From Lama guanicoe (Eukaryota), in contig MU057356.1 of the NCBI GenBank assembly GCA_013239625.1, forward strand, positions 25,090,971-25,154,970: a stretch of DNA of 64,000 nucleotides. The letters run 5' to 3'. Positions 1-47,213 of this stretch are shown in pieces. Position numbers and translations under genes: made by a program. How positions within the stretch are numbered: the first letter of the stretch is position 1; the number at the start of each line of letters is the position of its first letter. The notes under the pieces were generated by a model, which had not been told where the DNA came from, did not search any database, and saw only the letters and a list, made by a program, of their open reading frames with translations.

Positions 1-119
1 AAAACAAATGGCCAGGAAGAATTGAAAAAAAAAAAAAAAGAATGTGTCACATCAATCCTAGTCAACCACACATGCTTGTGGGGTGGGATCCAGAGGAAGT
101 TGTTTTTATATCCTCCTCG

Positions 120-26455: not shown

Positions 26456-28832
26456 ATAGGACTAGTGATTGAACACTTACTCAGTCACTAGATGATCCTC
26501 TTTCCAGCCAGAAAAGAGACTGGCAGATCCCAAAAGGGTTAGAAAGCAGCCTTTCCTCCTCTAAGATTTAAGAAACTGCCTGCAGATTCCACCAGCCTTC
26601 CGAGCATCAGGAAATCAATGACAACAAATGGTGTTGTCAAAGGGGTCACAGGGGAGCACACACAGTGGAGGTCACCAATGGCCAGTCCACTGGTGCAGTG
26701 GCCACAGGAACTCATCAAAGCTGCCTCCACCTGGCCCCCTGCGTGGAGCCAGGTCAGGCCGGGCAGAGGGCGGTCTGCTGATTTCTGTGCTCACTCCTAG
26801 AGTCAGTCAATAAGGGGAGGAAGGGTGAATTACCTCAGTGCTGAGCTGCAAGGCACAGAGAGGAACAAATAGCACTTGTACTCCTGCAAGATAAGGGAGA
26901 AAGAGGAATGGCAAAGCAAAGTAAGAGACTGGCAAGCCAGGGGTGCACAATGAGGTGTGCTCCAACTGTGCAAAGGAAGACGGAGAGTGACTCACTGAGT
27001 GTGGAATGCATCATTCACTTTAATTCCCAGAGGCAGGTGGAACTATCCAGTATTAAAATGTAAGGTGGGCAAAACATCACTAGCCTTGCAATATACACTT
27101 CAACATACTGGCCAAGGATTAGAACCCTGAACTGAATTATAATCTCAGAAACACTCTAATCGGTGCTTAGAGCGAGGTGCCGTGATACGTGATACAACTC
27201 TTCCCGTCAGTATGCAGCTCTGCCCTCCTATTCCTACCCCCACCTCCGAGCCCCCCTGGCCCCACCGTCCCTGTACCTTTCCCTTCTGGGAGGGCCACCA
27301 TTCCTTCCACAACAGCCAACTCAGTTAACGTAGCAAAACAGACCAAAGTCTCGAGAAAGAGGCTGAACAGGCAGAAAGACTGAATGGAAAAGGAGAGAAA
27401 AAGAAGAGAAATAAGCAAAGTTAATTTACGGTCTGAGAGAGCTACTTCAACACTCTCGTTCCTGCATTATCTTTGCCTGGCAGCTGCAGCTGTGCACCAC
27501 CTTTCATCCCTGACACAAACAGCCCGTATCTGCAATTACCAACGCCCAGGGAGCGAGCATTAGTATGCAGCATACGGCCTGGGGAAAGGTGTAATGCTGG
27601 GCCTCCTCCTGCCTCAGAAGTCCCTAGCAGACAGGCCCAGGAACAAAGGGAAATGGGATACAGAGAAGCCAAGCATCTGTTGGAGGCCAGAGCCTATGTA
27701 AGGGGTCAGATGGTTGTGGCAGAACCAAAGAGGAGGTGAAGAGAGGAGGAGACAAAATGCAGTGGGTAGCTGAGACTGAGTTTTTAAAATCTGTCTTAAC
27801 GAACTAACAACAATTAGATCTTTGTGCTAATTTTAGGGGTAAATAAAATGGTAATAATGGGAAAGGGCAACTCAGTCCAAAGCCATGCATATGGGGACAA
27901 AAAAGGGGAAAGTTGTAAACGAAAAACTATGGACTATTTTCTCTCCTTTACTCTCATATTATCTATCAGGTGATACTTTGCCATCGCTTTTGGCCTGGTT
28001 AAAATTGCATGCAAATGCACCCAGCGTAGAACAACTCAGTGTGTCCCACTCAGGATGACATCAGTCTCAATAAAATCCACCTGAGATCAGCTTCATGCAG
28101 TGACTAAGGACTGTGGGAGACTTCTAAAGTCACCCAATTAGAGAATTATATGAACGAAAATTGATAAGAAATATATCAGCACTTAAATGTCCAGCAACAG
28201 AGGGCTGGCTACATCAACTGTAAAATACACACTTACTAGCATACTATCCAACCAGTACTTTAGTTCCATAGTTTTCAGTTAGTGATATATATATTCACAA
28301 AACACAAGCTCCATAAGGAAGCTGTAATAGCATGGAAGTTGCTGAAGCTTACAAAACAAGATTTTATTTGACAGTAGGTAGAAGCATTTCAGGCCAGGAC
28401 TGGAAAAAGTCAGTCCTTGGATCCATATCACGTGTCTGCACAGACATTGGCCACTTAAAACAATTAACCTTAATTCCTCACTGAGGACCAGAGTCCTGGT
28501 TCTGATAAACTGGGGAAGTCCTACAGACATTACTAGTCTGCTCTTGGAATATCTGTTTTCCCTCTTTCCTTGCTAACTGAAATCTGATTTGTTTTACTGC
28601 AGTAATTTGTCCTGCTGGAAAAAAAATTTTTTTTTTAAAATGTCCAGTGCCTGTTCCTGTGCTATCTCTCCAGGTTTCTTGTCGTATACAAAAAAAAGAG
28701 AATAAGAGAAAATACGTTGTTTTGGTTTTCTCTGACTTGCACCCAAATCTGTTTCTAATTTTCCCAGGAGATGTCCACTAAACCCCCTCTCCCCCAACAA
28801 GAAAAGCTAAATGATAGTTTGTTGGTTGGTTA

Positions 28833-41100: not shown

Positions 41101-41479
41101 TTATAAATATAAGTTAGATTCCTACCTTTCTCCCTAAGACTTCAAGTGCCTTCTCACAATGAAGCAAATTGCTTTTATAGAATTAGGAAGATTTGAAAAC
41201 CCCATTTGCATTGTTGATCAGTGTAGTGGGTGTAATGGAAACTGAAACGTCTGTCCCAATACTTGAAATCTCATCTACCAACTTCACAACCTTGAGAAAC
41301 TTTTTATTTTGTTAACCTCAGTTTCTTCATCTACAAAACAATGGTACTGCTACTCCAACTTCAATGTCCTCCCTCAACCAGTGTGAAAAACATTTTTCTT
41401 TTCACATCTTACCCTAAATTCTTGTGTTTTTTGTTTGTTTGTTTGTTTTTAATATTTTCCTGTTTCTCCAAGCAGACTT

Positions 41480-41680: not shown

Positions 41681-42447
41681 TGCTTTACCTTCTAATCAAG
41701 TGACTGTAACCTGTGAATTGATATGCACTAAAGGAAAATGCTATACAGATGCGAATTATTGTATCCCAACGCACAGGAGTAAGTCACAGAATTGGGTCCA
41801 GTTTGTCTTATTTACTCATAAAGGAATATAGAACATGTTACTTGATTTTTGAAGAGCTATTTTAACTGAAGGGTTTAAAAAATATTCACAGATCCTTCAC
41901 TGAAACTTATGAACTCTGCAAAGACAGACACCTGACTGAACAAAAGAGGAATCCAGACAGAAGTGACAATAAAACACTTGTCATGGAGACAGAAGCAATG
42001 TTTAAGACAAGCAGCCCTCAAGTTTGAAATGCAGTCTCACTGTCTGCTCCAAAACCCAGCGGAAGGGTAAATAATGTCAAAGAAAACCAGCATGTCCTAC
42101 CAACTACAAATGGGGCGATTAGACTATCTGTTGAACACACATTTATGAACAGCACTGCTGACAAGCCTCTTTAGAAAAATTTATCTGTTTCTTCCATAGA
42201 GAAATGTATAATGAAACTGTCCTCTCTTTGTGTAGATCGTGGCCTACCTTTTTGTTTTTGGTTTGTGGTATACAGGCTAATTTACACTTTTAATTTTAGT
42301 AAAATACAAGAACTCTAGGCAAACTACATCACGTCAATATTGCTATCAATGCCAACAGTAGCAATAACATCGTATTTTCCCTCAGGACCATTTAACATCA
42401 CTTTTCAGAACCTTGCACAACAGAAAATATATGAGGAAAATGCTTAA

Positions 42448-42685
42448 TTGACTCTACGGATTGGATCCGGGCTGTAGAACACTTCGCCTCAAAGTCAGGA
42501 GTTCAAATCCAGCCTGGAGTAAAGAAGATAAAAACATTTCCAGGTGTTGTGTGCTTAAATCGAGTTTAAGCCTTGATGCAGCTCCCTGAGGCAAGGGATC
42601 AGCAGTATATTTTAGCATCTTGTTCACAGCCCTGAAGCAAGAACAAGGTCTGGAGACCCAGGAGACTGAACCAGCTCTTTATCCA
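42448..42685 (+). mobile_element. Probable LF-SINE (LFSINE_Vert) relic
   Basis: tRNA-like head 'ggattggatccgggctgtagaacacttcgcctcaaagtcaggagttcaaatccagcc' (B box at 42501) and downstream block 'gcatcttgttcacag...caaggtctgga...ggagactgaaccagctct'; both are colinear with the LF-SINE consensus as I recall it. Confidence 0.72.
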
Positions 42686-43384
42686 ACATCCAGCAGCATC
42701 ATTTAGGCCACACTCGGTGCCCTATAGACCCCTCCAGAGGTGCCAAGAAGATTTTCACTTTACATGGCTTCCAAACACTTAAACCATTACCTCCCACCCC
42801 TGGGGTGCTGGAAAACAAAGCTGAGAATTTATAAAGAAAAAGCTATTCAGTGTTTTCATTCTCAAAGAGCAAGATGATTCAGAAAAAAATTAATGAACTT
42901 GAAAAGGGAAGAAATTTAAATTTGGAATTACAAACTTTCATATGCATGGCCATGAATATGTAATTTCCCTGGTAAACTTTAAAATGTTGGCCAGGGAAAA
43001 TATTCACCCTATTATGAATATAACGGAGTTCCTGTAAATACGATGCACGACCTCCTAACTTGCATACCGAATTAGATGCTGGAGACACTGCTGCATCATA
43101 CACGCCAGTTTCTTAATTTCTGTAAATACATACATGCCCTATTGAATCCAAGTGATCACCAGCAGTAGTAAATAATATCAAATCCAAGTCGGATATACCT
43201 TATGGATAAAGTCACCAAGGAAACTGAAATCTTGATATACTACCACTGTTAAAATTTGCCAGACACAATTACATAGACCCTTATATTTCCAATATCACTT
43301 CACTCAAATCCTAACGTTTTATTCAGTTCCATTTTCTGAGGTGACCTTGTCACTTGACCCAACTGGTCTAAAGGAGTGGTCTGG

Positions 43385-43600
43385 CTATGGTTTGATCAAA
43401 GGGAAAAGTCCCTAGGCTTCAAATCAGCAACTGCTCAGAGCCCCAAGCCTGACTCTGCCATCACTACATTGCATAAACTTGAGTAAGAAATATCAGGTAT
43501 CTGTTCTCTTTCTTCATCTGCAGAACAAAGGTGGGAAAGGGGGATAATGAGTCATTCTGGAAGGTTCGTTCCAGTTCTACATTCTACAAACTGTGAAAAG
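43385..43600 (+). mobile_element. MIR/MIR3 SINE
   Basis: 'aagcctgactctgccatcact...cttgagtaag...tcttcatctg...aaggttcgttccagttctacattcta'. Confidence 0.7.
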
Positions 43601-46900: not shown

Positions 46901-47102
46901 TATTCCAGATTTTATCATTAAGTGCCTCAGAAGCTACCAATTGAGAAAGATGGCTTATTGGTGCCTATTATCATTTCTAGAGGAAAGGTAATTACTACTG
47001 ATGGTACCCTGTGTCTTAAGACATGTTTCAAATACAAAGTTTCATTTAAAATTTTGCAACACATTCACATTTTGGGGAAAAATAAAAACAAAGGGAGCTT
47101 TA

Positions 47103-47213
47103 TTTGGTGGGGGATAGGTAATTAGGTTTATTTATTTATTCATTTTTGGAGGAGGTGCTGGGGATTGAACCCAGGACCTTCCTTTGTGGGGAGTGGAGCC
47201 ATATCCACTCCCC
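47103..47213 (-). mobile_element. Camelid tRNA-derived SINE (vic-1 type), internally rearranged
   Basis: 'ggtaattaggtttatttattta...tggaggaggtgctggggattgaacccaggacct'; TSD acaaagggagcttta (47088-47102) / acaaaggaaacttta (47214-47228). Confidence 0.85.

Follow-up and report, generated by a model that had tools for sequence, protein, structure and literature searches.

The segment at positions 42448-42685 of the 64,000-nucleotide stretch of Lama guanicoe DNA analyzed here (the whole stretch is referred to as the window) is best read as the worn front part (5′ two-thirds) of an LF-SINE copy, which would have been inserted in a pre-mammalian ancestor and would have decayed at or near the neutral rate since then, with no demonstrated function; we assign this reading a probability of roughly 0.6. 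The original description of LF-SINE is reportedly that of Bejerano et al. in 2006. In the available portions of five later sources (PMC3649676, PMC9148063, PMC2315648, PMC5063351, PMC5753468), the family, also called LFSINE_Vert, is a 481-bp tRNA-derived SINE of Latimeria. The features of the element and its immediate context are as follows.

41226..41349, plus strand: MIR fragment in the left context, outside the element (MIR profile, E 9.2e-9)
42449..42459, plus strand: A-box position, decayed (two mismatches against the standard Pol III A-box consensus)
42454..42515, plus strand: probable tRNA-derived head of the LF-SINE copy (head profile; the pairwise alignment starts at 42454)
42501-42510, plus strand: B box GTTCAAATCC, core intact (from the letters; the same in the family consensus)
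42516..42640, plus strand: middle of the element, decayed and a net ~43 bases short (the full profile runs through it collinearly)
42641..42684, plus strand: second conserved block, the last detectable part of the copy (model ~230-274)
43340..43533, plus strand: MIR fragment in the right context, outside the element (MIR profile, E 2.7e-13)

The preliminary description had reported a B box and a second block about 150 bp downstream, and both are present, at 42501-42510 and 42661-42671; the latter position is occupied by GGAGACTGAAC, which lies within the second block, 150 bp from the B box GTTCAAATCC. The limits proposed there, 42448-42685, agree with the profile envelope (42458-42694). Relative to the consensus of the 33 reference copies described below, the head is identical at 36 of 55 positions without a gap (42458-42512), and the second block, which occurs in the same order as in the family, shows 23 ungapped identities in 45 positions (42640-42684). 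The spacing of the two blocks is 160 here vs. 203 in the consensus, corresponding to a net loss of about 43 bases. The B-box and second-block 10-mers each occur three times in the surrounding 664 kb, both strands counted.

The reference was composed of LF-SINE-type copies gathered from the same genome (2.05 Gb), starting from Rfam uc_338, the search for which gave 25 matches; 23 with E < 0.1 were kept, and two (L025 and L026, E > 1) were left out. Three motif searches composed from the kept copies added 2, 2, and 6 new copies out of 4, 4, and 8 matches, respectively, and the reversed-pattern controls of these searches gave none. The resulting set comprises 33 copies, many of which are partial, and the 42448-42685 element was excluded from every profile. 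Two of the reference copies (L002 and L003) are located in coding exons of known LF-SINE type, one of which is that of SMARCA4/BRG1. When read antisense, L002, the best copy, matches residues 1262-1298 of BRG1 (E 1.7e-4) and UNC79 (E 0.04) among PDB sequences, and L003 adjoins a SMARCA4 exon; the LF-SINE-derived exon peptide (L002:1463-1678, L003:1497-1682) is visible in PDB in the 1647-residue BRG1 isoform and in UNC79. We take uc.338, the SMARCA4 alternative exon, and UNC79/KIAA1409 to be LF-SINE-derived exons, and L002 is presumably the PCBP2 exon copy, as judged by its peptides. The reference profile thus assembled appears, from these peptide and exon matches, to represent the LF-SINE family. 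In L003, a stretch of at least 300 bases that contains a helicase-domain exon of SMARCA4 occurs twice (L003:1802-2101 and 2224-2523), 100% identical and 422 bases apart, which is likely an assembly artefact or else a very recent tandem exon duplication.

The final profile, based on the 33 copies, matches 42473-42683 collinearly over model positions 21-274 (21.4 bits, E 1.1e-6 in the window); the genome-scaled E of this match is 0.037, which is good for a targeted test and borderline for a blind one. Across the surrounding 664 kb, the runner-up reaches 3.8 bits and the reversed-sequence control at most 2.2 bits. This profile was the fifth of five builds; of these, one found the head alone and two, in their final form, did not detect the element. 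The first (23 copies centred on uc_338, with a badly aligned 5′ half) did not detect the element at E <= 10; the second matched only the head (E 1.5e-4); the third, which was misaligned through the internal similarity of the element, gave E 0.29 and lost the element in its final form; and the fourth (28 copies), for which the left and right halves were aligned apart and the seeds were trimmed by eye, matched 42474-42684 with 17.3 bits. The fifth is a realignment of the fourth on 33 copies.

Most of the family signal sits in the head. The head-only profile (9 copies) gives 17.4 bits (E 1.7e-4 in the window, with a runner-up of 4.9 bits), and the pairwise head score was equalled by none of 3000 nulls. 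The profile of the second block alone gives 5.6 bits, a score equalled by 4 of 2000 random 250-mers and corresponding to E 1.1 over the whole window, and 35 of 3000 nulls equalled the pairwise body score; the p value contributed by the second block is ~0.002-0.012. The middle-only and whole-body profiles did not detect the element. The front part scores 197.5, and none of 5000 random 261-mers from the surrounding 664 kb reaches this value (null maximum, 161). Pairwise comparisons with single family copies are weak, with a best z of 5.5 (L015). On the 3′ side, the continuation (model 275-430) is undetectable, as 968 of 3000 nulls score equally high in the tail test, and an extension of the copy to 42780, seen in one pairwise alignment, failed this same test and was discarded; loss or decay of the 3′ third or tail is usual in old copies. 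A 25-base stretch at 42787-42811 resembles family sequence downstream of the second block (2.4 bits, E 0.64, with the misaligned profile), and could be a continuation displaced by an insertion or a chance resemblance.

A BLAST search of the element against its own genome, as well as a search of the same genome for the 33-base head with up to three mismatches, returned only the element itself, indicating that no young family is involved. A pattern scan of metagenome contigs for both blocks at the found spacing gave no matches, and at least half of the words of 41700-43400 were present in 15 of 24 sequencing runs (shares 0.95-1.00; close relatives), five of which may come from the source itself. 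Another five runs, with shares of 0.08-0.22, carry no weight as evidence. The assignment to LF-SINE made in the preliminary description is borne out: the family that includes uc.338 and the SMARCA4 alternative exon fits the element better than do 38 tRNA sequences of 16 isotypes, a MIR profile, or the lineage SINE, and 42448-42685 is very probably an LF-SINE copy.

Between the element and the family, 118 of 211 aligned bases are identical (56%, Jukes-Cantor 0.66), a value obtained with a consensus that derives from decayed copies and with profile alignments, which inflate identity. This is the lowest value among 34 copies, the other 33 of which show 63-86% identity in leave-one-out comparisons (84-86% for the two exonised copies), although the last rank is partly built in because the comparison copies were chosen as best scorers or by motif match. 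MIRs in the same 664 kb (80 copies with at least 80 aligned bases) show a median identity of 64.6% (quartiles 61-69%, Jukes-Cantor ~0.48), so that the ratio of the element distance to the MIR distance is about 1.4. The insertion ages considered here are about 200 My and more than 300 My. The ratio would fit neutral decay if the insertion is about 200 My old and mild constraint if it is much older, since an insertion more than 300 My old with only 1.4 times the MIR distance would mean some constraint. According to de Souza et al. (PMC3649676), repeats usually can no longer be recognised once they are more than about 200 My old.

It had been proposed that a copy still recognisable at this locus is probably under purifying selection as an enhancer or exon. 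This proposal is unsupported: the element is the most diverged of the 34 copies and falls below the local MIRs, no usable donor is present, the part exonised elsewhere is undetectable, and no developmental regulator is adjacent. The accompanying statement that few mammalian copies survive does not hold either, as 122,727 bp of the mouse genome are attributed to LFSINE_Vert in PMC10257727, and relics are therefore common. Given LF-SINE identity, the copy is probably near-neutral or weakly constrained, as judged from its divergence, and weak or partial constraint may act on the head and the second block. Near-neutral decay, which is fairly probable on the evidence as a whole, appears likelier than exaptation, which is rather unlikely. 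Two other LF-SINE copies on the same contig, L010 (9.41 Mb) and L062 (29.44 Mb), located 15.7 and 4.3 Mb off, show 72-73% identity and are better exaptation candidates than the 42448-42685 copy.

The best surviving alternative, which we consider possible but unlikely, is that the LF-SINE copy was exapted as a distal enhancer or other cis-element under moderate purifying selection, with MAN2A1, TMEM232, or a farther gene as its target. Precedents exist: PMC3649676 lists the Isl1 enhancer and more than 200 conserved human LF-SINE instances, and enrichment in open chromatin is documented for old SINE subfamilies, LFSINE_Vert included (PMC6904449). In the portions of PMC10257727 consulted, LFSINE_Vert is enriched in Lhx2 peaks of mouse brain, a result that derives from three motif-bearing ATAC peaks, but neither Man2a1 nor Tmem232 is mentioned in the four supplements of that paper that were checked. 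The copy is also detectable despite its great age, its similarity is gathered in two blocks, and the CpG observed/expected ratio is 0.27-0.42 around the element vs. 0.19 in the window (5-7 CpGs per piece). Besides the decay described above, the family word TAATTG (near model position 195) lies in the portion of this copy that is deleted or degenerate, neither flanking gene is a developmental regulator, and the element is about 285 kb from one of their promoters and > 440 kb from the other. It is distinctly improbable that the element acts in the TMEM232-MAN2A1 gap as a long-range, tissue-specific enhancer under constraint, with its function carried by the tRNA-derived head and the GGAGACTGAAC block and not by the 3′ half that the known exonised copies use; if so, a regulatory role would extend even to very worn, truncated LF-SINE heads.

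The window is CpG-depleted, with a GC content of about 38%. The element is intergenic: TMEM232 and a Golgi alpha-mannosidase II gene converge towards it with their 3′ ends, leaving some 400 kb between them, and the closest coding ends lie at distances of about 124 kb and 276 kb. The mannosidase gene, which we take by synteny to be MAN2A1, is on the minus strand (Pfam GH38; PDB match, E 9e-19); measured from the window start, its last coding exon is at about +166 kb and a CpG island at 327-329 kb. Nine matches place TMEM232 exons at 24.69-24.75 Mb (plus strand), and two later exons, the first of which lacks a Pfam match, are presumably located near -236 and -233 kb, as suggested by peptide words. 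A heuristic scan of 664 kb, from which small or non-coding exons would escape, identified no convincing coding exon over the element or between the flanking genes. A literature search for enhancers together with MAN2A1 and TMEM232 gave nothing relevant, no chromatin or reporter data for the locus were found, and PMC3428314 makes no mention of LF-SINE.

The region of ~41.7-43.4 kb had been called repeat-poor, which holds as far as MIR is concerned, the one family checked: no MIR-profile match lies between 41226-41349 and 43340-43533. A 2-kb gap between repeats is not in itself unusual. Several further observations were made in the region. Two adjacent imperfect palindromes with arms of about 20 bases are located at 42933-43002, 250 bases downstream of the element, and account for a chance Rfam match. 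A short lineage-specific tRNA-SINE copy, which presumably resembles the camelid Vic-1, occupies 47098-47180. The segment 24300-27750 has a GC content of 0.45-0.47, is richer in CpG, and contains exon-like open frames, including 26566-26752 (plus strand) and 27244-27379 (minus strand), with no Pfam match; it could be a regulatory region or contain non-coding exons. A CpG island 7 kb to the left of the window is the 5′ end of an L1, with a CpG-rich UTR and a broken ORF1 (L041:3130-5470, 5-7 kb left of the window).

There is little probability that the element is instead a tRNA pseudogene or the head of another old tRNA-derived SINE, with the second block present by chance. Such an origin would accord with the concentration of 17.4 of the 21.4 bits in the head, with the failure of the middle-only and body-only profiles, and with the genome-scaled E of 0.037. 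The head, however, scores 120 against the LF-SINE head consensus, compared with 89 for the best tRNA (Cys), 74 for the MIR consensus, and 64 for the lineage SINE, the tRNA set here comprising 38 distinct sequences of 16 isotypes, with His and several others absent. A better match to MIR or to one of these tRNAs, which would have told against LF-SINE, was thus looked for and not found, and the second block follows the head in the family order and orientation, as noted above. Rfam gave nothing on the element at E <= 10, with tRNA and SRP included, and nothing in the window at the gathering score; ARAGORN predicted no tRNA gene at the element; and folding of the head gave no cloverleaf and was no better than that of shuffled sequences (z -0.95). 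A tRNA gene or pseudogene was rejected on these three grounds, and the head as an Alu/7SL B-box region was dropped for lack of an SRP match in Rfam. MIR, judged on its CORE domain and profile, was likewise rejected, as the MIR profile (102 copies), which did not grow when seeded on the neighbouring copy alone and was rebuilt from the core motif, is silent on the element at E <= 10. Among the 16 isotypes sampled, which do not include His, the LF-SINE family head consensus is closest to tRNA-Cys; LFSINE_Vert is labelled tRNA-His-derived in the part of PMC5063351 available.

The weakest alternative, which is very improbable, is that the copy serves as an alternative exon, like those of PCBP2 and SMARCA4, in a transcript that is either coding or long non-coding. 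LF-SINE has supplied 19 coding exons, PCBP2 among them (PMC9148063), and rough matrices place acceptor-like sites in the element, on the minus strand only, at 42631, 42585, and 42513. The candidate, judged by an antisense acceptor and donor near model 275-375 within a host gene, was rejected, as the same matrices return no donor for either strand of the element, the part of the model that L002 and L003 use as an exon (~275-375) falls in the undetectable tail, the 74-codon antisense frame has no Pfam match above the cut-off, and the element lies outside both flanking genes.

As a near-neutrally decaying LF-SINE relic, the element would have originated by retrotransposition of a Pol III transcript with LINE enzymes in a pre-mammalian ancestor, would later have lost the 3′ third, about 43 internal bases, and the A box, and would remain visible mostly through 55 bases of the head. 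Given these losses, Pol III transcription and mobility of the copy are both predicted to be absent. By its profile match, 42448-42685 would be a new instance and an ordinary member of the known family, one more worn relic of a family with many catalogued mammalian copies and with 33 others in the same genome, and it serves as a caution that the recognisability of an old repeat is no proof of selection. If it were a conserved enhancer, it would add one more LF-SINE exaptation and a candidate regulator of MAN2A1/TMEM232, and no new principle.

Among known systems, MIR and other CORE-SINEs are likewise old tRNA-derived SINEs, and MIR copies lie on either side of the element, at distances of about 1 kb and 0.7 kb, but the element is distinguished from them by the silence of the 102-copy profile. 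The exonised copies (PCBP2 uc.338 and SMARCA4) belong to the same family and both occur in the same genome, whereas in them identity remains at 84-86% and the exon is formed by the antisense 3′ half, which is not detectable in the intergenic, donor-less copy described here. The ISL1 LF-SINE enhancer resembles the element in being intergenic and distant from promoters; however, the conservation of that enhancer extends from mammals to frog, and it shows activity in transgenic mice (PMC9148063), while the neighbours of 42448-42685 are not developmental transcription factors. In comparison with LF-SINE itself, the 3′ third is undetectable here, about 43 internal bases are gone, and the identity is 56%, measured against the in-genome profile and not the published consensus; even so, the element is collinear with the family over model 21-274, with a tRNA-like head carrying the B box followed by the block around GGAGACTGAAC, and, like other copies, it is a single, dispersed, non-coding copy.
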